Sequence record: PP355090.1
DNA: 64,000 bases
Origin: Escherichia phage 232Ecol030PP
Reading direction: 5' to 3' (one strand)
Below, piece by piece: positions 5,535 to 62,626 of the stretch. Made by a program: the position numbers and the translations under genes. Below the pieces are notes generated by a model. It did not search any database and was not told the DNA's origin. It saw only the letters and a list, made by a program, of their open reading frames with translations. Positions within the stretch are counted from its first letter, which is position 1. Every line of letters starts with the position of its first letter.

Positions 5535-5610
5535 TGGTCGAGGCAGTAGGGATCGAACCTACGACCCAGGACTTAGAAGGTCCTTGCTCTTCCTTCTGAG
5601 CTATGCCTCG
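5535..5610 (-). tRNA. tRNA-Arg (anticodon UCU)
   Basis: manual cloverleaf: acceptor CGAGGCA/TGCCTCG, anticodon loop CTTCTAA, T-loop TTCGATC, CCA encoded. Confidence 0.85.
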
Positions 5611-5614
5611 GATT

Positions 5615-5689
5615 TGGCGGACGTGATAGGATTCGAACCTATAACCAATCGCTTAACAGGCGATCGCTCTGCCATTGAGCTACACATCC
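5615..5689 (-). tRNA. tRNA-Asn (anticodon GUU)
   Basis: manual cloverleaf: acceptor GGATGTG/CACGTCC, anticodon stem ATCGC/GCGAT, loop CTGTTAA, T-arm ATAGG-TTCGAAT-CCTAT, CCA encoded. Confidence 0.75.
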
Positions 5690-5693
5690 AAAT

Positions 5694-5780
5694 TGGTGGG
5701 GAGTGATGGAGTCGAACCACCCGAGTCGCAATGACAATGGATTTACAGTCCACACCGCTACCTCTACGGGATAACTCCCC
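5694..5780 (-). tRNA. tRNA-Tyr (anticodon GUA), long variable arm
   Basis: acceptor GGGGAGT/ACTCCCC, anticodon loop CTGTAAA, long variable arm TGTCATTGCGACTCGGG, T-loop TTCGACT; architecture like bacterial tRNA-Tyr. Confidence 0.7.
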
Positions 5781-5789
5781 AAATTAATT

Positions 5790-5864
5790 TGGTGGCCCTG
5801 GGTGGAATTGAACCACCATCTGGCGATTATGAGTCGCTTGCTTGAACCTTCCAGCTACAGGGCC
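5790..5864 (-). tRNA. tRNA with CAU anticodon (Ile by analogy with T4, or Met)
   Basis: acceptor GGCCCTG/CAGGGCC, anticodon loop CTCATAA, T-arm GGTGG-TTCAATT-CCACC. Confidence 0.75.
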
Positions 5865-5865
5865 T

Positions 5866-5941
5866 TGGTGCTGATTGACGGAATCGAACCGCCGACCTTC
5901 TCATTACAAGTGAGTTGCTCTACCTACTGAGCTAAATCAGC
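5866..5941 (-). tRNA. tRNA-Thr (anticodon UGU)
   Basis: acceptor GCTGATT/AATCAGC, anticodon loop CTTGTAA, T-loop TTCGATT. Confidence 0.85.
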
Positions 5942-5946
5942 AAAAC

Positions 5947-6036
5947 TGGCGGAGGCGATAGGATTTGAACCTATGAGTCGCCGGAGCGACTGCCGGTTTT
6001 CAAGACCGGTGCATTAAACCACTCTGCCACGCCTCC
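5947..6036 (-). tRNA. tRNA-Ser (anticodon UGA), long variable arm
   Basis: GGAGGCG...CTTGAAA...long variable arm...ATAGG-TTCAAAT-CCTAT-CGCCTCC-G-CCA. Confidence 0.85.
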
Positions 6037-6039
6037 AGT

Positions 6040-6112
6040 CTCCGTGGCAGGATTTGAACCTACGACATTCTGCTCCCAAAGCAGACGCTCTACCAAACTG
6101 AGCTACACGGAG
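6040..6112 (-). tRNA. tRNA-Pro (anticodon UGG), CCA not encoded
   Basis: acceptor CTCCGTG/CACGGAG, anticodon loop TTTGGGA, T-loop TTCAAAT; 3' end followed by CT then tRNA-Ser. Confidence 0.85.
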
Positions 6113-6122
6113 TAAATTAAAT

Positions 6123-6196
<74 letters not shown>

Positions 6197-6201
6197 AAAT
6201 T

Positions 6202-6288
6202 TGGTGCGAGAAGTGGGACTCGAACCCACAAGGAAATCATTCCGCAGCATTTTAAGTGCTGTGCCTTTACCAATTTGGCCATTCTCGC
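6202..6288 (-). tRNA. tRNA-Leu (anticodon UAA), long variable arm
   Basis: acceptor GCGAGAA/TTCTCGC, anticodon loop CTTAAAA, T-loop TTCGAGT. Confidence 0.85.
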
Positions 6289-6289
6289 G

Positions 6290-6362
6290 CTGGGAATAAA
6301 GGACTCGAACCTTTGCATCCTGGAATCAAAATCCAGTGCCTTACCAACTTGGCTAATTCCCA
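6290..6362 (-). tRNA. tRNA-Gln (anticodon UUG), CCA not encoded
   Basis: acceptor TGGGAAT/ATTCCCA, anticodon loop TTTTGAT, T-loop TTCGAGT. Confidence 0.85.
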
Positions 6363-11417: not shown

Positions 11418-11425
11418 TATAAATA
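11418..11425 (+). promoter_or_regulatory. Late promoter TATAAATA for gene 53
   Basis: exact TATAAATA 29 nt upstream of the gene 53 ATG. Confidence 0.6.
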
Positions 11426-11432
11426 GATAATA

Positions 11433-11440
11433 TATTTATA
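11433..11440 (-). promoter_or_regulatory. Late promoter TATAAATA (minus strand) for gene 4
   Basis: plus tatttata 27 nt upstream of the gene 4 ATG; divergent with the gene 53 promoter. Confidence 0.6.
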
Positions 11441-11453
11441 AACAGGAGGGCCC

Positions 11454-12044
11454 ATGCTCTTTACATTTTTTGATCCGATTGAATATGCGGCCAAAACGGT
11501 GAATAAAAACGCGCCGACTATTCCTATGACAGATATTTTTAGAAACTATAAAGACTATTTTAAACGCGCTCTTGCGGGATACCGCTTACGTACTTATTAT
11601 ATCAAAGGTTCACCACGCCCGGAAGAATTAGCAAATACTATATATGGAAATCCACAGTTGTATTGGGTTTTATTGATGTGTAATGATAATTATGACCCGT
11701 ATTATGGATGGATTACTTCACAAGAAGCAGCTTATCAAGCATCTATACAAAAATACAAAAATGTAGGTGGAGACCAAATAGTATATCATGTGAATGAGAA
11801 CGGTGAAAAATTTTATAATTTAATATCATACGATGATAATCCATATGTTTGGTATGATAAAGGTGATAAAGCTAGAAAATATCCTCAATATGAAGGAGCA
11901 CTTGCTGCTGTTAATACGTATGAAGATGCTGTTCTTGAAAATGAAAAACTTCGTCAAATAAAAATAATAGCAAAATCAGACATTAATTCATTTATGAACG
12001 ACCTTATACGTATAATGGAGAAATCTTATGGAAATGATAAGTAA
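11454..12044 (+). CDS. 53: Baseplate wedge protein gp53
   Basis: 196 aa; position and length as T4 gp53. Confidence 0.9.
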   Translation: MLFTFFDPIEYAAKTVNKNAPTIPMTDIFRNYKDYFKRALAGYRLRTYYIKGSPRPEELANTIYGNPQLYWVLLMCNDNYDPYYGWITSQEAAYQASIQKYKNVGGDQIVYHVNENGEKFYNLISYDDNPYVWYDKGDKARKYPQYEGALAAVNTYEDAVLENEKLRQIKIIAKSDINSFMNDLIRIMEKSYGNDK

Positions 12045-13755
12045 TAACCTTAATTGGTTTGTTGGTGTTGTTGAAGATAGAATGGACCCATTAAAATTAG
12101 GTCGTGTTCGTGTTCGTGTGGTTGGTCTGCATCCACCTCAAAGAGCACAAGGCGATGTAATGGGTATTCCAACTGAAAAATTACCATGGATGTCAGTTAT
12201 TCAACCTATAACTTCTGCAGCAATGTCTGGAATTGGAGGTTCTGTTACTGGACCGGTAGAAGGAACTAGAGTTTATGGTCATTTTTTAGACAAATGGAAA
12301 ACTAACGGAATTGTCCTTGGCACGTATGGTGGAATAGTTCGCGAAAAACCGAATAGACTTGAAGGATTTTCTGACCCAACTGGGCAATATCCTAGACGTT
12401 TAGGAAATGATACTAATGTATTAAACCAAGGCGGAGAAGTAGGATATGATTCGTCTTCTAACATTATCCAAGATAGTAACTTAGACACTGCAATAAATCC
12501 CGATGATAGACCACTATCAGAGATTCCAACCGATGATAATCCAAATATGTCAATGGCTGACATGCTTCGCCGTGATGAAGGATTAAGACTAAAAGTTTAT
12601 TGGGATACTGAAGGATATCCGACAATTGGTATTGGTCATCTTATCATGAAGCAGCCAGTTCGTGATATGGCTCAAATTAATAAAGTTTTATCAAAACAAG
12701 TTGGTCGTGAAATTACTGGAAACCCAGGTTCTATTACGATGGAAGAGGCGACGACTTTATTTGAACGTGATTTGGCTGATATGCAACGGGACATTAAATC
12801 ACATTCTAAAGTAGGACCAGTCTGGCAAGCTGTCAACCGTTCTCGTCAAATGGCGTTAGAAAATATGGCATTTCAAATGGGTGTTGGCGGTGTAGCTAAA
12901 TTTAACACAATGTTAACTGCTATGTTAGCCGGAGATTGGGAAAAAGCATATAAAGCCGGTCGTGATTCATTGTGGTATCAACAAACAAAAGGCCGTGCAT
13001 CCCGTGTTACCATGATTATTCTTACGGGGAATTTGGAATCATATGGTGTTGAAGTGAAAACCCCAGCTAGGTCTCTATCAGCAATGGCTGCTACTGTAGC
13101 TAAATCTTCTGACCCGGCTGACCCTCCTATTCCAAATGACTCGAGAATTTTATTCAAAGAACCAGTTTCTTCATATAAAGGTGAATATCCTTATGTGCAT
13201 ACAATGGAAACTGAAAGCGGACATATTCAGGAATTTGATGATACTCCTGGGCAAGAACGATACAGATTAGTTCATCCGACTGGAACTTATGAAGAAGTAT
13301 CACCGTCAGGAAGAAGAACAAGAAAAACTGTCGATAATTTGTATGATATAACCAACGCTGATGGTAATTTTTTGGTAGCCGGTGATAAAAAGACTAACGT
13401 CGGTGGATCAGAAATTTATTACAACATGGATAATCGTCTTCACCAAATAGATGGAAGCAATACAATATTTGTACGTGGCGATGAAACTAAGACAGTTGAA
13501 GGCAATGGAACTATCCTAGTTAAAGGTAATGTTACTATTGTAGTTGAAGGTAATGCTGACATTACAGTTAAAGGAGATGCTACCACTTTAGTTGAAGGAA
13601 ATCAAACTAACACAGTAAATGGAAATCTTTCTTGGAAAGTTGCTGGGACAGTTGATTGGGACGTTGGTGGTGATTGGACAGAAAAAATGGCATCTATGAG
13701 TTCTATTTCATCTGGTCAATACACAATTGATGGATCGAGGATTGACATTGGCTAA
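12028..13755 (+). CDS. 5: Baseplate hub / tail-associated lysozyme gp5
   Basis: 575 aa; lysozyme-like motif DMLRRDEGLRLKVYWDTEGYPTIGIGHL and C-terminal VxGxxxxxx beta-helix repeats. Confidence 0.95.
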   Translation: MEMISNNLNWFVGVVEDRMDPLKLGRVRVRVVGLHPPQRAQGDVMGIPTEKLPWMSVIQPITSAAMSGIGGSVTGPVEGTRVYGHFLDKWKTNGIVLGTYGGIVREKPNRLEGFSDPTGQYPRRLGNDTNVLNQGGEVGYDSSSNIIQDSNLDTAINPDDRPLSEIPTDDNPNMSMADMLRRDEGLRLKVYWDTEGYPTIGIGHLIMKQPVRDMAQINKVLSKQVGREITGNPGSITMEEATTLFERDLADMQRDIKSHSKVGPVWQAVNRSRQMALENMAFQMGVGGVAKFNTMLTAMLAGDWEKAYKAGRDSLWYQQTKGRASRVTMIILTGNLESYGVEVKTPARSLSAMAATVAKSSDPADPPIPNDSRILFKEPVSSYKGEYPYVHTMETESGHIQEFDDTPGQERYRLVHPTGTYEEVSPSGRRTRKTVDNLYDITNADGNFLVAGDKKTNVGGSEIYYNMDNRLHQIDGSNTIFVRGDETKTVEGNGTILVKGNVTIVVEGNADITVKGDATTLVEGNQTNTVNGNLSWKVAGTVDWDVGGDWTEKMASMSSISSGQYTIDGSRIDIG

Positions 13756-19500: not shown

Positions 19501-19664
19501 AAGGTCAATTGCCTTCTGAACGACGCAAGTTAATGAGTCCTCTATTTGACGCATCTGGAACAACATTTGCACAGTTTAGGGATTTAGTTAATAAACGTCT
19601 AAAAGATAATATAGGAAATCCAAGAGACCCTGAAAATCCAACACAGGTTAAAATAGATGAATGA
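16566..19664 (+). CDS. 7: Baseplate wedge protein gp7
   Basis: 1032 aa, T4 gp7 length and order. Confidence 0.93.
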   Translation: MTVKAPSVTSLRISKLSANQVQVRWDDVGANFYYFVEIAETKTNSGENLPSNQYRWINLGYTANNSFFFDDADPLTSYIIRVATAAQDFEQSDWIYTEEFETFATNAYTFQNMIEMQLANKFIQEKFTLNNSDYVNFNNDTIMAALMNESFQFSPSYVDVSSISNFIIGENEYHEIQGSIQQVCKDINRVYLMESEGILYLFERYQPVVKVSNDKGQTWKAVKLFNDRVGYPLSKTVYYQSANTTYVLGYDKIFYGRKSTDVRWSADDVRFSSQDITFAKLGDQLHLGFDVEIFGTYATLPANVYRIAEAITCTDDYIYVVARDKVRYIKTSNAPIDSDPLSPTYSERLFESDTMTITGNPKAVCYKMDSIGDKVFALIIGEVETLNANPRTSKIIDSTDKGIYVLNHDTKTWKRVFGNTEEERRRIQPGYANMSTDGKLVSLSSSNFKFLNDNVVNDPETVAKYQLIGAVKYEFPREWLADKHYHMMAFIADEKSDWETFTPQPMKYYAEPFFNWSKKSNTRCWINNSNRTVVVYADLKYTKVIENIPETSPDRLVHEYWDDGDCTIVMPNVKFTGFKKYASGMLFYKSSGEIISYYDFNYRVRDTVEIIWKPTGVFLKAFLQNQEHETPWSPEEEHGLADPDLRPLIGTMMPDSYLLQDSNFEAFCEAYIQYLSDGYGTQYNNLRNLIRNQYPREEHAWEYLWSEIYKRNIYLNADKRDAVARFFESRSYDFYSTKGIEASYKFLFKVLYNEEVEIEIESGAGTEYDIIVQSDSLTEDLVGQTIYTATGRCNVTYIERSYSNGKLQWTVTIHNLLGRLIAGQEVKAERLPSFEGEIIRGVKGKDLLQNNIDYINRSRSYYVMKIKSNLPSSRWKSDVIRFVHPVGFGFIAITLLTMFINVGLTLKHTETIINKYKNYKWDSGLPTEYADRVAKLTPTGEIEHDSVTGEAIYEPGPMAGVKYPLPDDYNAENNNSIFQGQLPSERRKLMSPLFDASGTTFAQFRDLVNKRLKDNIGNPRDPENPTQVKIDE

Positions 19665-20661
19665 TTCAAGTGTTATCTATCGTGCGATAGTTACTTCAAA
19701 ATTTAGAACAGAAAAAATGTTGAATTTTTATAATTCAATTGGGAGTGGTCCGGATAAAAACACTATCTTTATCACATTTGGAAGATCAGAACCGTGGTCA
19801 TCAAATGAAAATGAGGTGGGCTTTGCCCCACCTTATCCAACCGATTCTGTATTAGGCGTAACTGACATGTGGACGCATATGATGGGAACAGTAAAAGTTC
19901 TTCCATCAATGCTTGATGCTGTTATTCCTCGCAGAGATTGGGGAGATACTAGATATCCGGATCCATACACATTTAGAATTAACGATATTGTAGTGTGTAA
20001 CTCAGCTCCTTACAACGCTACTGAATCAGGCGCAGGCTGGTTAGTATATCGTTGTTTAGATGTTCCTGATACCGGAATGTGTTCAATAGCATCTTTAACT
20101 AATAAGGATGAATGCCTCAAATTAGGCGGAAAATGGACTCCTTCTGTTAGGTCAATGACTCCTCCTGAAGGTCGAGGAGATGCGGAAGGAACAATCGAAC
20201 CTGGAGACGGATATGTTTGGGAATATCTTTTTGAGATTCCGCCCGATGTATCTATAAATAGATGCACAAATGAATATATCGTAGTTCCTTGGCCTGAGGA
20301 ATTAAAAGAAGACCCAACTAGATGGGGGTATGAAGATAATCTCACTTGGCAGCAAGATGATTTTGGGTTAATTTATCGTGTTAAAGCTAATACAATTCGT
20401 TTTAAAGCATATTTAGATTCAGTTTATTTTCCTGAAGCTGCATTGCCGGGAAATAAAGGATTTAGACAAATATCAATAATCACGAATCCTCTTGAAGCTA
20501 AAGTTCATCCAAATGATCCAAACGTTAAAGCTGAAAAGGATTATTATGATCCAGAAGATTTAATGAGGCATTCGGGCGAAATGATTTATATGGAAAATAG
20601 GCCACCTATTATCATGGCAATGGATCAGACAGAAGAAATCAATATTCTGTTTACATTTTAA
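19657..20661 (+). CDS. 8: Baseplate wedge protein gp8
   Basis: 334 aa. Confidence 0.93.
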   Translation: MNDSSVIYRAIVTSKFRTEKMLNFYNSIGSGPDKNTIFITFGRSEPWSSNENEVGFAPPYPTDSVLGVTDMWTHMMGTVKVLPSMLDAVIPRRDWGDTRYPDPYTFRINDIVVCNSAPYNATESGAGWLVYRCLDVPDTGMCSIASLTNKDECLKLGGKWTPSVRSMTPPEGRGDAEGTIEPGDGYVWEYLFEIPPDVSINRCTNEYIVVPWPEELKEDPTRWGYEDNLTWQQDDFGLIYRVKANTIRFKAYLDSVYFPEAALPGNKGFRQISIITNPLEAKVHPNDPNVKAEKDYYDPEDLMRHSGEMIYMENRPPIIMAMDQTEEINILFTF

Positions 20662-20666
20662 ATTAA

Positions 20667-20690
20667 GGGAGCCCATGGGCTCCCTTTTTC
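20667..20690 (+). terminator. Terminator-like hairpin after gene 8 (copy 1; copy 2 at 20808-20831)
   Basis: GGGAGCCCATGGGCTCCC followed by TTTTTC. Confidence 0.6.
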
Positions 20691-20833
20691 TTTATAAATA
20701 CTATAAACTCATAAGGAAACCGCTATGTTCATTCAAGAACCAAAGAAATTGATTGATACAATGGATCAGACAGAAGAAATCAATATTCTGTTTACATTTT
20801 AAATTAAGGGAGCCCATGGGCTCCCTTTTTCTT

Positions 20834-20841
20834 TATAAATA
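20834..20841 (+). promoter_or_regulatory. Late promoter TATAAATA for gene 9 (duplicated copy also at 20693-20700)
   Basis: exact TATAAATA 25 nt upstream of the gene 9 ATG. Confidence 0.6.
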
Positions 20842-20865
20842 CTATAAACTCATAAGGAAACCGCT

Positions 20866-21732
20866 ATGTTCATTCAAGAACCAAAGAAATTGATTGATAC
20901 CGGCGAAATTGGTAACGCTTCTACTGGTGATATCTTATTCGACGGTGGTAATAAAATTAATAGTGATTTTAACGCAATTTATAATGCGTTTGGCGATCAG
21001 CGTAAAATGGCAGTAGCAAATGGCACTGGAGCAGATGGTCAAATTATCCATGCTACTGGATATTATCAAAAGCACTCTATCGCGGAGTACGCAACTCCAG
21101 TGAAAGTTGGCACTAGACATGATATTGATACCTCTACTGTAGGTGTTAAAGTTATTATTGAAAGAGGAGAACTTGGCGATTGTGTTGAATTCATTAACTC
21201 TAATGGATCAATATCAGTTACTAATCCTTTAACGATTCAGGCTATTGATTCAATTAAAGGCGTTTCAGGTAATTTAGTAGTAACTAGTCCATATAGTAAA
21301 GTTACTTTACGTTGTATTTCATCTGATAATTCTACGTCGGTTTGGAATTATTCTATTGAAAGTATGTTTGGTCAAAAGGAATCACCTGCTGAAGGTACAT
21401 GGAATATTTCTACATCTGGGTCAGTTGACATTCCATTGTTTCATCGTACTGAATATAACATGGCTAAATTGTTAGTTACATGCCAATCAGTAGATGGAAG
21501 AAAAATTAAAACGGCAGAAATAAATATTCTTGTAGATACTGTTAATTCAGCGGTCATTTCTTCTGAATATGCTGTCATGCGGGTTGGAAATGAAACAGAA
21601 GAAGACGAAATCGCTAATATTGCATTTAGTATTAAAGAAAATTATGTAACGGCAACTATAAGTTCTTCAACTGTCGGTATGAGAGCAGCAGTTAAAGTTA
21701 TCGCTACGCAGAAAATCGGGGTGGCTCAATAA
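20866..21732 (+). CDS. 9: Baseplate wedge / tail-fibre socket protein gp9
   Basis: 288 aa MFIQEPKKLIDTGEIGNASTGDILFDGG... Confidence 0.95.
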   Translation: MFIQEPKKLIDTGEIGNASTGDILFDGGNKINSDFNAIYNAFGDQRKMAVANGTGADGQIIHATGYYQKHSIAEYATPVKVGTRHDIDTSTVGVKVIIERGELGDCVEFINSNGSISVTNPLTIQAIDSIKGVSGNLVVTSPYSKVTLRCISSDNSTSVWNYSIESMFGQKESPAEGTWNISTSGSVDIPLFHRTEYNMAKLLVTCQSVDGRKIKTAEINILVDTVNSAVISSEYAVMRVGNETEEDEIANIAFSIKENYVTATISSSTVGMRAAVKVIATQKIGVAQ

Positions 21733-43111: not shown

Positions 43112-44530
43112 TTATGGATAGGTATAGATGATACCAGTTTCTAAAGCAGTTTTATGAATGATGTATCCATTACGCGATTCTTGAACATCAACTTCTGGAT
43201 AGTCTTTCATCATCTTCTGAAGAGTGTAACGATGTAGGTAATATTTACTATCTGGGTCGTCAGTTTTCCAATCTTTACCTTCTTCGGTCATTTTTTGGAT
43301 TTCATCCATAACCCACCAACCGCACCAGATATAAGCTGAAGTACGATGTGGAAGAGGATGAACATAAGGTAGTTCACCTTCTGGTTCTGGAGCAACTTTA
43401 TCAGTTACCTGAACTTGACCTTCTGCTGTAATAGTTTTGCTATCGTAATCAGTTGCAGTAACGACAGCAGTAACTTCAATAGTTTGACTTCCAACAGATG
43501 AGGTATCGACAGTATATACGTTAGTTGACCCTTCTACAGGAGAAGAATCTTTCTTCCATGAGTAAGTAATTTGTGCTTCTTCTGGAGCACCCGTAACATT
43601 AGCCGTAAATGTAGCCGAAGCATCTTGCTGAACATTAATAGAAGGAGGAGTCAATGTAACCTGTGGATTCATTGTCTTCTTATTAACTGTCAATGATACT
43701 TCATTAGAAGTAACTTCCTTTTCATTGTAATTTTCAGCAGTTACTTGGGCTACGCATTTAATTCTTTTTACTCCACTTGTAGTTGGAGTATAGCTAAATG
43801 TAGAGTTAGTTTCTCCACCAACTTGTGAATCATCTACATACCACTGATACGTAGCAGACGCTCCATCAGGTTGAGAAGCTAAGGCAGCAGTAAATTGAAC
43901 TGGGGTTCCGATTACTCCCGCTGGAGGACTATCAGGAGTTACTGCCAAAGTAGTTGTCTGCTCCTTTTTATTAACAGTCAGTGATACTTCATTCGAAGTA
44001 ACTTCCTTTGTATCATAATCTGTCGCGGTTACTTGAGCTACGCACTTAATTGTTTTAACTCCGCTTGCGTCAGGAGTGTAATTGAATGTAGTGCTAGTTG
44101 CTTCGCCCACAGGAGAACCGTCAACGTACCATTGATACGTAGCGTTTGCACCTGATGGCTGTGAAGCTAAGGCAGCGGTAAATTCAATTGGAGTTCCAAT
44201 CACTCCAGCATCAGGGCTACCAGGAGTTACTGCCAAAGTAGTTGTTTGTGTCTTATTTTGAACTGTGATAGTTGTACTAATTTCAGCTGTTTCAGGTTCA
44301 GATTCTGCAACTTGATTGGTTGCAACTACTTTAATAGTCTTTTGACCGGCAGGTCCTTTTAGTACATAACTAAAAGTTGCTGACGTTTCTTCCTGTGGAG
44401 CGTCGTCTACAGTCCAAGCATATGTAATAGGTCCATCTCCAGTTTGACCACTGGGTGCAGCAGTAAACTGCTGAGTCTGATCTATAACTCCAGTAGGTGT
44501 TTTAGGAGTTATATCAACTGTAAAAGCCAT
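43112..44530 (-). CDS. hoc: Highly immunogenic outer capsid protein Hoc, with an extra Ig-like domain
   Basis: 472 aa; four tandem Ig-like modules plus C-terminal domain; modules 2 and 3 are near-duplicates. Confidence 0.9.
   Translation of the reverse strand: MAFTVDITPKTPTGVIDQTQQFTAAPSGQTGDGPITYAWTVDDAPQEETSATFSYVLKGPAGQKTIKVVATNQVAESEPETAEISTTITVQNKTQTTTLAVTPGSPDAGVIGTPIEFTAALASQPSGANATYQWYVDGSPVGEATSTTFNYTPDASGVKTIKCVAQVTATDYDTKEVTSNEVSLTVNKKEQTTTLAVTPDSPPAGVIGTPVQFTAALASQPDGASATYQWYVDDSQVGGETNSTFSYTPTTSGVKRIKCVAQVTAENYNEKEVTSNEVSLTVNKKTMNPQVTLTPPSINVQQDASATFTANVTGAPEEAQITYSWKKDSSPVEGSTNVYTVDTSSVGSQTIEVTAVVTATDYDSKTITAEGQVQVTDKVAPEPEGELPYVHPLPHRTSAYIWCGWWVMDEIQKMTEEGKDWKTDDPDSKYYLHRYTLQKMMKDYPEVDVQESRNGYIIHKTALETGIIYTYP
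43661..44248. repeat. Intragenic tandem duplication (~294 bp x 2, roughly 80% identical) encoding two Ig-like domains of Hoc
   Basis: protein segments TTTLAVTPGSPDAGVIGTPIEF...SLTVNKKEQ and TTTLAVTPDSPPAGVIGTPVQF...SLTVNKKTM; matching DNA blocks visible by eye. Confidence 0.8.
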
Positions 44531-49039: not shown

Positions 49040-49051
49040 TATTTATAAATA
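49040..49051. promoter_or_regulatory. Overlapping divergent late promoters (palindrome TATTTATAAATA) for genes 26 (-) and 51 (+)
   Basis: TATAAATA on plus at 49044-49051 and on minus at 49040-49047, 18-22 nt from each start codon. Confidence 0.6.
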
Positions 49052-59851: not shown

Positions 59852-60038
59852 AGTAATCTAGTGGTAAGAGAGTACGGTATATTTCAAACTTTGGACCTTT
59901 TTCATAGGCATCAAATGTTTCTGTGAATTTATTATAAGCGTATGCATCTACAAATTCGAGAATGACTTGTGATACAGAAGTAGAAACATCTCCACCTTCT
60001 TTTTGAGCAATGACAATTGTTTCTAAGTAAGCTTTCAT
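59850..60038 (-). CDS. Hypothetical small protein
   Basis: 62 aa ORF overlapping the gene 30 stop by 4 nt. Confidence 0.55.
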   Translation of the reverse strand: MKAYLETIVIAQKEGGDVSTSVSQVILEFVDAYAYNKFTETFDAYEKGPKFEIYRTLLPLDY

Positions 60039-61498
60039 AAACCAGTTACCTCATGAAAATCACCAAATACATCCTCGAATGTATTAGCTTTAGTTTTATC
60101 TTCACGCAAACGAATCGCAATCGGAAGAAATAATTTAACGTAATCAGTGCGGCCATCAGATTTTAACCAACCGTTGCATTCGCACTCTAGAATTTTTCCA
60201 ATATAATAATTTTGGTTTTCCATAATGCGAGTACGGTCAAGTTCATGCGATTTTACACCGGCTTTATCTTTTAAGCCTGAACCAGCATTTACTTTAATTT
60301 TTCCACACTCTGACTCAAGAATAAATCCACCTGCTTTAGTAGGGTCTTTACGGTGAGGATAAATTCCTACAATTTTTAAATCAACATCAATTACTTCTTT
60401 AAATTTATAGAGATTTTTTGAACGAGCATTTTCCCATAATCCATCGATATTTTTGAGAATAATACCTTCAAGACCTTGGTCAATATACTTTTTATAAATT
60501 ACCTTGGCTTCGTCTAGGTTATTTACTACCTGGTTTTCAATTAAAATTACTTTATCATAGCCTGATGTCATTTGTTCTAGTTTAGAAAAACGTACATCAT
60601 ATTTCAAACGAAATGCAGGAAGACCGTATATTTCTACCAACGGGACATAATCCCAGACCTGAAACTTCATGCATTGAGCTTCTTTTTCAGAAATGGTTCC
60701 CTTTAAAGATTTATTGGCGATGCCATTAGATGCAGTACGTGATTCAGCTACTTCGGCGAATTCTTTAGCTTTACTAATTTCAGGATAAGCATCAAAAAGA
60801 AAATCTAGGCCTTCTGGCTCCTTTTCAACTTGCTCATGGTATACCAATTCGCCATCAATTAACACGCCTTCTGGATGAATCTGGCGGGCTTCAGCGGTCA
60901 TTTTGATTAATTCTTCCTTAAGAAGATCTAATCCTAGATATTCATTACCAGCTCGTGATAAAAGACGAACGTCATCTAATTCATCACCTCTGACTTCGGC
61001 AAAGCACCGAGCTCCATCAGCTTTTAACTGGGCAAAGGCTGGAAATTTGATATTCTTATTAATGCCTTTTTCATCATAAGAACTTGCGAGCATTTGAGGT
61101 TGTTCAGGAATTAAACCTGGCCAAACTTTGTTTGCAATAGATACTGAAGCACCACATTCAAGGTCTCGCATCATCACTCGACGCAAAACTTCAACATCAT
61201 CTTTTTTACCATCAGTGATATATCCAGTTAATTCCTCAATTGCAGCATTTCCAGTCAATTTCCGAGTAGCTAACGTGAATTCAATGAAGTCAAGCATATC
61301 GGTAATAGTCAGCATTCCAAAACTCTGGGTAGCAATACCCGGTTTAGGCCATTTCTTGATATAATACTGTAACCCACGAGAATAAGTCAGACGATATACT
61401 CGTTTAAGCAATTCATTATCTTTATTCTTTTCAAGAATTGCTTGCTTCTGCTTAGTTGAACCAATAGATGCTATTTCGTTCAGAATTTTAAGAATCAT
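60035..61498 (-). CDS. 30: ATP-dependent DNA ligase
   Basis: 487 aa; adenylation motif KADGAR; T4 ligase length. Confidence 0.96.
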   Translation of the reverse strand: MILKILNEIASIGSTKQKQAILEKNKDNELLKRVYRLTYSRGLQYYIKKWPKPGIATQSFGMLTITDMLDFIEFTLATRKLTGNAAIEELTGYITDGKKDDVEVLRRVMMRDLECGASVSIANKVWPGLIPEQPQMLASSYDEKGINKNIKFPAFAQLKADGARCFAEVRGDELDDVRLLSRAGNEYLGLDLLKEELIKMTAEARQIHPEGVLIDGELVYHEQVEKEPEGLDFLFDAYPEISKAKEFAEVAESRTASNGIANKSLKGTISEKEAQCMKFQVWDYVPLVEIYGLPAFRLKYDVRFSKLEQMTSGYDKVILIENQVVNNLDEAKVIYKKYIDQGLEGIILKNIDGLWENARSKNLYKFKEVIDVDLKIVGIYPHRKDPTKAGGFILESECGKIKVNAGSGLKDKAGVKSHELDRTRIMENQNYYIGKILECECNGWLKSDGRTDYVKLFLPIAIRLREDKTKANTFEDVFGDFHEVTGL

Positions 61499-61764: not shown

Positions 61765-61976
61765 TAGAATGCTCCTTGGAAAATATTATCACCACTAGTA
61801 AATCTATTAAAATATCCTGCATCACCAGGCTTAGTATAACTCCACGTATGGAATGGATTCATATGATACGGGTGTGTATAATATGGATTATATGGATGTG
61901 TATAATATGGATTATACGGATTAAATCCAGGAGTTCTCCAGGTAGTGTTCCAACGAAAAGAATCGTTTTTAACCAT
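61764..61976 (-). CDS. Hypothetical Tyr/Pro-rich small protein with internal 8-aa tandem repeat
   Basis: 70 aa; YNPYYTHP repeated twice, encoded by a 24-bp tandem repeat. Confidence 0.55.
   Translation of the reverse strand: MVKNDSFRWNTTWRTPGFNPYNPYYTHPYNPYYTHPYHMNPFHTWSYTKPGDAGYFNRFTSGDNIFQGAF
61871..61918. repeat. 24-bp tandem repeat x2 (22/24 identical) inside the small ORF
   Basis: ggtgtgtataatatggattatatg / gatgtgtataatatggattatacg. Confidence 0.8.
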
Positions 61977-61993
61977 CTTCTCAATTACATCTT

Positions 61994-62626
61994 TTATAGC
62001 TTTTTCACTATCAAAACTTTCTTTATTTTCCTTCGGTGAAAAAGCTTATTTTCTACATCATTCCATGTATAAACTCGCTGCGCAGTTTTTGGAATATTGT
62101 CACGCTCTCCTCGAGCCATCCAATAAACAGGAACATTTAATATTTCACTCGCATGATCGCAGTGGTGGGCGAGATCGTCAATATAACAAATTACATTATA
62201 TTTCTCTTTTGCCTTTTTGAATAACTCTTCTTTTGAAGAATCATGACCACACATCATTACTTCTGAGAAGGCACCAGGAAAAAGAGCATTCAAATTAAAT
62301 TGACGATTCAGCAGAGCGTCAATAGAATCACCCAATGCTGTAACAGCTACAAAATTATAATCTTCTTTTAGTTTGTTAATTACGCACAGGGCATCTTTAT
62401 ATGGAGACAGGTAACGAATAAAATCTGATCGATTGTATTTTTCAATTAGCTTGACACCAAGTTCTTCATCACAATTAAAGAGTTTACCCGGAGAAATAAA
62501 TTTCTCATCTTGGATCATTTTTAAAATATGTTCTAACGGAAGATTATATTTCTGAGCAAAATAAGGAAGACCTGATTGCCAGCTTAAACATACTCCATCA
62601 ATATCAGTTAAAATAGTAGGCTTCAT
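61994..62626 (-). CDS. HAD-superfamily hydrolase-like protein
   Basis: 210 aa; N-terminal LTDIDGV (DxDG motif I) and later CYIDDL aspartates. Confidence 0.6.
   Translation of the reverse strand: MKPTILTDIDGVCLSWQSGLPYFAQKYNLPLEHILKMIQDEKFISPGKLFNCDEELGVKLIEKYNRSDFIRYLSPYKDALCVINKLKEDYNFVAVTALGDSIDALLNRQFNLNALFPGAFSEVMMCGHDSSKEELFKKAKEKYNVICYIDDLAHHCDHASEILNVPVYWMARGERDNIPKTAQRVYTWNDVENKLFHRRKIKKVLIVKKL

Follow-up and report, generated by a model that had tools for sequence, protein, structure and literature searches.

The genomes of T4-type phages are circularly permuted, and for this reason they assemble as circles. Among known systems, the closest to the repeat described below is the k-mer overlap at the ends of pseudo-circular contigs from de Bruijn assemblers, for which the largest k-mer (maxK) is 141 in MEGAHIT and 127 in SPAdes; a k-list ending in 141 is the MEGAHIT default. 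For both MEGAHIT and metaSPAdes, the overlap between contig ends equals maxK, and 'self_circular' contigs were recognised by it in a study that used the MEGAHIT k-list 21,29,39,59,79,99,119,141 (PMC10914622). In phage isolates, an overlap of 127 bp, corresponding to the SPAdes k-mer, was found at the ends of pseudo-circular contigs and required manual removal (PMC12007190; PMC7372960). According to the Phage Annotation Guide, an appearance of circularity is among the common artefacts of assembly, and the guide advises that genomes be re-ordered so as to be collinear with their relatives (PMC8785237).

Two further systems are relevant here. One is a paralogous cassette of Tequatrovirus genomes, as found in phage LH2. 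It consists of about 50 nt, with a hairpin GGGAGCC…GGCTCCC, a T-run and TATAAATACTAT, and is 90% identical to the intergenic module between genes 8 and 9. In LH2 it lies on the minus strand (OQ378934.1, 77979-78028; 27979-28028 in L015), between genes annotated as 'tail connector protein' and 'hypothetical protein', which by their position are genes 35 and 36. This suggests that some Tequatrovirus genomes have paralogous copies of the terminator-late promoter module at dispersed sites. The other system is the tandem duplication, well known from T4 genetics. Classical T4 tandem duplications (in the rII region, or as amplification of the gene 17-18 region) are kilobases long, selected by phenotype and unstable, and their ends usually lie in short homologies; the end points of T4 rearrangements are typically found in short direct repeats.

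The repeated unit and its contents

The stretch of DNA analysed here (the window, 64,000 nucleotides from Escherichia phage 232Ecol030PP) belongs to a Tequatrovirus, i.e. a T4-like phage, with phage ECML-123-2 as the best match (99.1% identity over 24 kb). Its gene order is that of T4, running 53, 5, 6, 7, 8, 9, 10, 11, 12 and wac onward. Our analysis revealed a perfect tandem repeat at the junction of genes 8 and 9, the features of which are as follows.

19657-20661, plus strand: gene 8, baseplate wedge subunit, 334 aa, intact (Pfam Phage-Gp8, E 5.5e-197); ends inside copy 1
20618-20758, plus strand: copy 1 of the 141-nt unit (gene 8 tail, terminator, late-promoter motif, ribosome-binding site, first 12 codons of gene 9)
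20665-20686, plus strand: terminator-like hairpin 1 with the T-run behind it; the annotation of phage JB75 gives a rho-independent terminator at this site
20693-20700, plus strand: TATAAATA late-promoter motif, copy 1
20725-20802, plus strand: 25-aa chimeric open reading frame MFIQEPKKLIDTMDQTEEINILFTF (gp9 residues 1-12 followed by gp8 residues 322-334)
20742-20775, plus strand: novel junction made by the repeat, …TTGATTGATA / CAATGGATCAG…, with no match in four collections
20759-20899, plus strand: copy 2 of the 141-nt unit, 100% identical to copy 1
20806-20827, plus strand: terminator-like hairpin 2, a copy of hairpin 1
20834-20841, plus strand: TATAAATA motif, copy 2, at its normal place before gene 9
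20866-21732, plus strand: gene 9, baseplate wedge tail-fibre connector, 288 aa, intact (T4_gp9_10_N and _C); starts inside copy 2

The two 141-nt segments were identical and arranged head-to-tail, as seen both by direct reading and by a repeat search (100% identity, spacing 141). Tandem Repeats Finder returned 20618-20900 with a period of 141, 2.0 copies, 100% matches, no indels and a score of 566, and a script check again found the two copies identical, with ATTATCATGG before the first unit and CCGGCGAAATT after the second. The copy number is thus exactly two, and the copies abut, the spacing of 141 being equal to the length. A perfect adjacent repeat of this size is excluded as a chance event (about 4^-141). 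The base at 20900 (C) is the same as the first base of the unit, so that the match extends over 283 nt (2 x 141 + 1) and the repeat may validly be taken to start at either 20618 or 20619. The perfect 141-bp tandem duplication reported in a preliminary description of this DNA is therefore present, and the coordinates given there, 20619-20900, denote the same repeat shifted by one base. The novel junction, which can also be written as …AAATTGATTGATA / CAATGGATCAGACAG…, is the sole sequence of the repeat region that is absent from relatives.

Each unit contains the last 13 codons of gene 8 with the stop codon, a hairpin with a T-run, TATAAATA, an AAGGA ribosome-binding site (RBS) and the first 12 codons of gene 9. 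The hairpin, AAGGGAGCC-CATG-GGCTCCCTT, has nine pairs (six of them G-C) and a loop of 4 nt, and is followed by the T-run; its folding energy is -16.2 kcal/mol (z = -2.9). TATAAATA is the consensus of T4 late promoters. The window has 26 occurrences of it, where 10 would be expected, and many of these sites lie shortly upstream of late genes. The products of genes 8 and 9, with 334 and 288 aa, match the T4 proteins in length.

The 25-aa chimeric frame lies between genes 8 and 9 and retains a start codon and an RBS. The two genes share one reading frame, and the unit is a whole number of codons long (141 = 47 x 3); the start of gene 9 in copy 1 is therefore fused in frame to the end of gene 8 in copy 2, which creates this mini-ORF. 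The elements consequently follow each other in the order T1-P1-RBS1-miniORF-T2-P2-RBS2-gene 9, where T1 and T2 are the two hairpins and P1 and P2 the two TATAAATA motifs. The anatomy put forward in the preliminary description, namely 13 codons of gene 8, hairpin, late promoter, RBS and 12 codons of gene 9, was right in full. Our data also bear out its chimeric mini-ORF at 20725-20802 and its two tandem promoter/terminator units ahead of gene 9, with hairpins from 20665 and 20806 and TATAAATA motifs from 20693 and 20834.

Comparison with related genomes

In order to place the repeat among its relatives, as the preliminary description had proposed, a 901-nt query covering it was compared with phage genomes. 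Matches were found in 607 phage records, and all 60 of the 60 listed spanned 760 nt in two pieces, a span which corresponds to one copy of the unit. Phage JB75 was 100% identical save for the extra copy. The identical gp9 protein is encoded widely in public contigs (163 blocks), and a single unit was present in 10 of 10 public contigs with this protein. A search for the exact gp7 protein gave no match on record. Hence one copy was found in every relative inspected.

When the 141-nt unit alone served as the query, it matched 520 places in 500 phage records. In phage LH2, the second place turned out to be the 50-nt, 90%-identical terminator/late-promoter cassette of the tail-fibre gene cluster described above, and a second full copy of the unit in this phage was accordingly rejected. 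This inspection covered LH2 as one of 20 such records, the other 19 also being without the junction, and a cassette of the LH2 type probably explains the second places in these 20 of the 500 records. The LH2 cassette is unlike the repeat studied here: it is old, diverged and dispersed, and comprises the regulatory module alone, whereas the present repeat is a perfect tandem with coding sequence at its ends.

We then searched for the junction itself. A 34-nt junction query had no match among 50,697 phage records, and an exact search with the 34 nt gave no match in IMG/VR. Exact searches with 20 nt of the junction in GTDB genomes and with 26 nt in JGI metagenome contigs likewise found none. As judged from these comparisons, the duplication is private to the analysed sequence. 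The absence of the junction elsewhere amounts to uniqueness, and does not by itself separate an artefact from a private mutation.

Origin of the repeat

We consider it highly probable that the repeat is an assembly scar and did not arise by duplication in the phage; a circular MEGAHIT contig (largest k-mer 141) would have kept the overlap between its ends untrimmed. Because the DNA of T4-like phages is circularly permuted and has redundant termini, short-read de Bruijn assemblers turn it into a pseudo-circular contig, whose first and last k bases are the same sequence, with k being the largest k-mer. If such a contig were closed into a circle, or re-started at the customary T4 position, and the overlap copy were left in, the contig ends would meet. 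A contig of the form X…X rotated without trimming would place X beside X, and would thereby give a perfect two-copy repeat of 141 bases at an arbitrary site, in this case where gene 8 meets gene 9. On this reading, the phage genome itself would be 141 bases shorter and would carry one terminator-promoter module, as its relatives do.

All of the sequence-level marks of a k-mer end overlap were found here, namely 100% identity, two abutting copies, a genome of the circular type and absence from relatives, and the position of the repeat is equally arbitrary. Unlike in a typical k-mer overlap, the copies are adjacent and internal and do not stand at the ends of the record, so that closing or rotation without trimming is needed in addition. 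The start of the window is consistent with a rotated record: its first base aligns to 62.6-63.7 kb of records starting at the T4 convention (rIIA-first), which fits bases 64001-128000 of a re-oriented record and thus probably reflects a rotation step. Both the use of MEGAHIT, or of another assembler at k = 141, and the untrimmed rotation of the contig are points that we infer, and the evidence for k = 141 is circumstantial. Our literature search turned up no source that gives a 141-bp overlap for circular MEGAHIT contigs in so many words, and the value of 141 bp is obtained by combining the maxK rule with the k-list.

The preliminary description had left three origins unranked, illegitimate recombination, a population variant and an assembly artefact. 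Of these, the artefact is favoured because the extra length is 141, which is the default largest k of MEGAHIT, because the copies are perfect and exactly two in number with an end-point homology of one base, and because none of the collections searched contains the junction. The terminal redundancy of T4 was also considered as a source of the repeat, and was rejected; it is known to be kilobases long and to have no fixed position.

The length also bears on a different kind of joining error, in which overlapping contigs or gap-closing products were pasted end to end without merging, by manual or reference-guided assembly, and the overlap happened to be 141 nt. Such an error could likewise occur at any site, and would leave two perfect tandem copies with a junction absent elsewhere. 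It needs a coincidence to arrive at 141, however, whereas this is the very value predicted by a k-mer overlap, and we regard it as extremely unlikely.

A real duplication of 141 bases would look identical in the consensus. We therefore weighed the possibility that a very recent tandem duplication, produced by illegitimate recombination or by replication template switching between genes 8 and 9, is genuine and fixed in the stock. The duplication is present in the sequence as given and its copies are head-to-tail. Genes 8 and 9 are both intact and the chimeric frame has a start codon and an RBS, so that the phage would be viable; viability does not discriminate, though, because a tandem duplication with its ends in two genes leaves both of them intact. 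Headful packaging, as established for T4, would accommodate 141 extra bases. In these respects, namely the head-to-tail direct repeat, the T4-type genome and a packaging mode able to hold it, the repeat resembles the classical T4 duplications. It differs from them in its small size of 141 nt, in its end points, which match over one nucleotide, and in having no evident selective value.

The end points deserve particular attention. Homology between them amounts to 1 nt (C), with ATTATCATGG followed by C at the outer end and TTGATTGATA followed by C at the junction, and a match of one base is at the level given by chance. A genuine event would typically, albeit not obligatorily, show several nucleotides of homology. 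Moreover, its length would have to equal an assembler constant exactly by coincidence, and its junction was unmatched in about 500 related records and in three other collections. The very active homologous recombination of T4 would tend to collapse a tandem repeat of 141 bp. No selective advantage is evident either, since T2 stands between P1 and gene 9 and insulates the gene. On this evidence, a genuine duplication fixed in the stock appears unlikely.

A related possibility is that the duplication is a real sub-clonal variant, carried by a minority of the genomes in the lysate, the longer path having been kept by the assembler or a curator. Phage lysates are populations, and a consensus sequence is compatible with this. 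The objections to a fixed duplication apply here as well, and de Bruijn assemblers normally take the majority path or break at the loop, and do not write out two copies. We consider this explanation to be very unlikely.

Hence, the most probable interpretation is that the repeat is an artefact and not a real feature of the phage genome. Its importance would then be curatorial only: the deposited genome would be 141 bases too long and would contain a spurious second terminator/promoter together with a spurious mini-ORF. For genome scans, we advise an automatic screen for perfect two-copy tandem repeats whose length is that of an assembler k (55, 77, 99, 127, 141).

Gene 9 expression and other features of the window

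If the repeat were real, the mini-ORF would be translated from P1 transcripts, most of which would end at T2 before gene 9, and read-through from gene 6-8 transcripts would meet two terminators. For gene 9 itself, P2 and RBS2 would act as they do in the wild type, their arrangement being exactly that of relatives. Gene 9 expression would thus be little changed, because the extra promoter P1 lies upstream of T2. The effect on gene 9 expression suggested in the preliminary description is therefore weakly founded even for a real repeat, since P1 transcripts would meet T2 first and P2/RBS2 stand as in relatives. Selection for higher gene 9 expression was rejected as an explanation on the same ground, i.e. 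the location of P1 upstream of T2.

A real repeat would be a modest example of the duplication of a regulatory cassette in T4-like phages. It is unlikely that the repeat captures a tandem duplication that took place very recently, and independently of homology, in a natural T4-like phage. In that case, a complete terminator-late promoter-RBS module would have been copied, along with a translatable 25-aa gp9N-gp8C micro-ORF, and could provide raw material for new regulatory modules, comparable to the diverged cassette between the LH2 tail-fibre genes 35 and 36.

Several other features were observed in the window. At 49040-49051 and 11418-11440, between divergent late genes, TATAAATA motifs of the two strands overlap or adjoin each other and resemble late promoters placed back to back. 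On the minus strand at 5535-6362, ten tRNA genes are clustered (Arg, Asn, Tyr, Met/CAU, Thr, Ser, Pro, Gly, Leu, Gln); T4 itself has eight tRNA genes, two fewer than the ten found here.

Internal repeats were also seen in coding regions. Tandem repeats of 24 nt and 48 nt are present at 13494-13626 on the plus strand, within the 575-aa gene 5 ORF (12028-13755), and are consistent with the octapeptide repeats of the C-terminal beta-helix of gp5. At the position of T4 hoc, an ORF of 472 aa (43112-44530, minus strand) with matches to PKD/Ig-like domains holds a tandem repeat of 288 nt (96 aa) with 78% identity at 43676-44245. The protein at the hoc position in phage LH2 has 376 aa as against 472 aa here, and the outer capsid decoration protein encoded by this ORF probably has one extra Ig-like domain. 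Finally, a 24-nt tandem repeat on the minus strand at 61866-61921 (2.3 copies, 90%) apparently lies within a minus-strand coding stretch and encodes …NPYNPYYTHPYNPYYTHPYH…. On one side of it is an ORF of 487 aa (60035-61498), by its position probably gene 30 for DNA ligase, and on the other the large ORF that follows (61994-62626).
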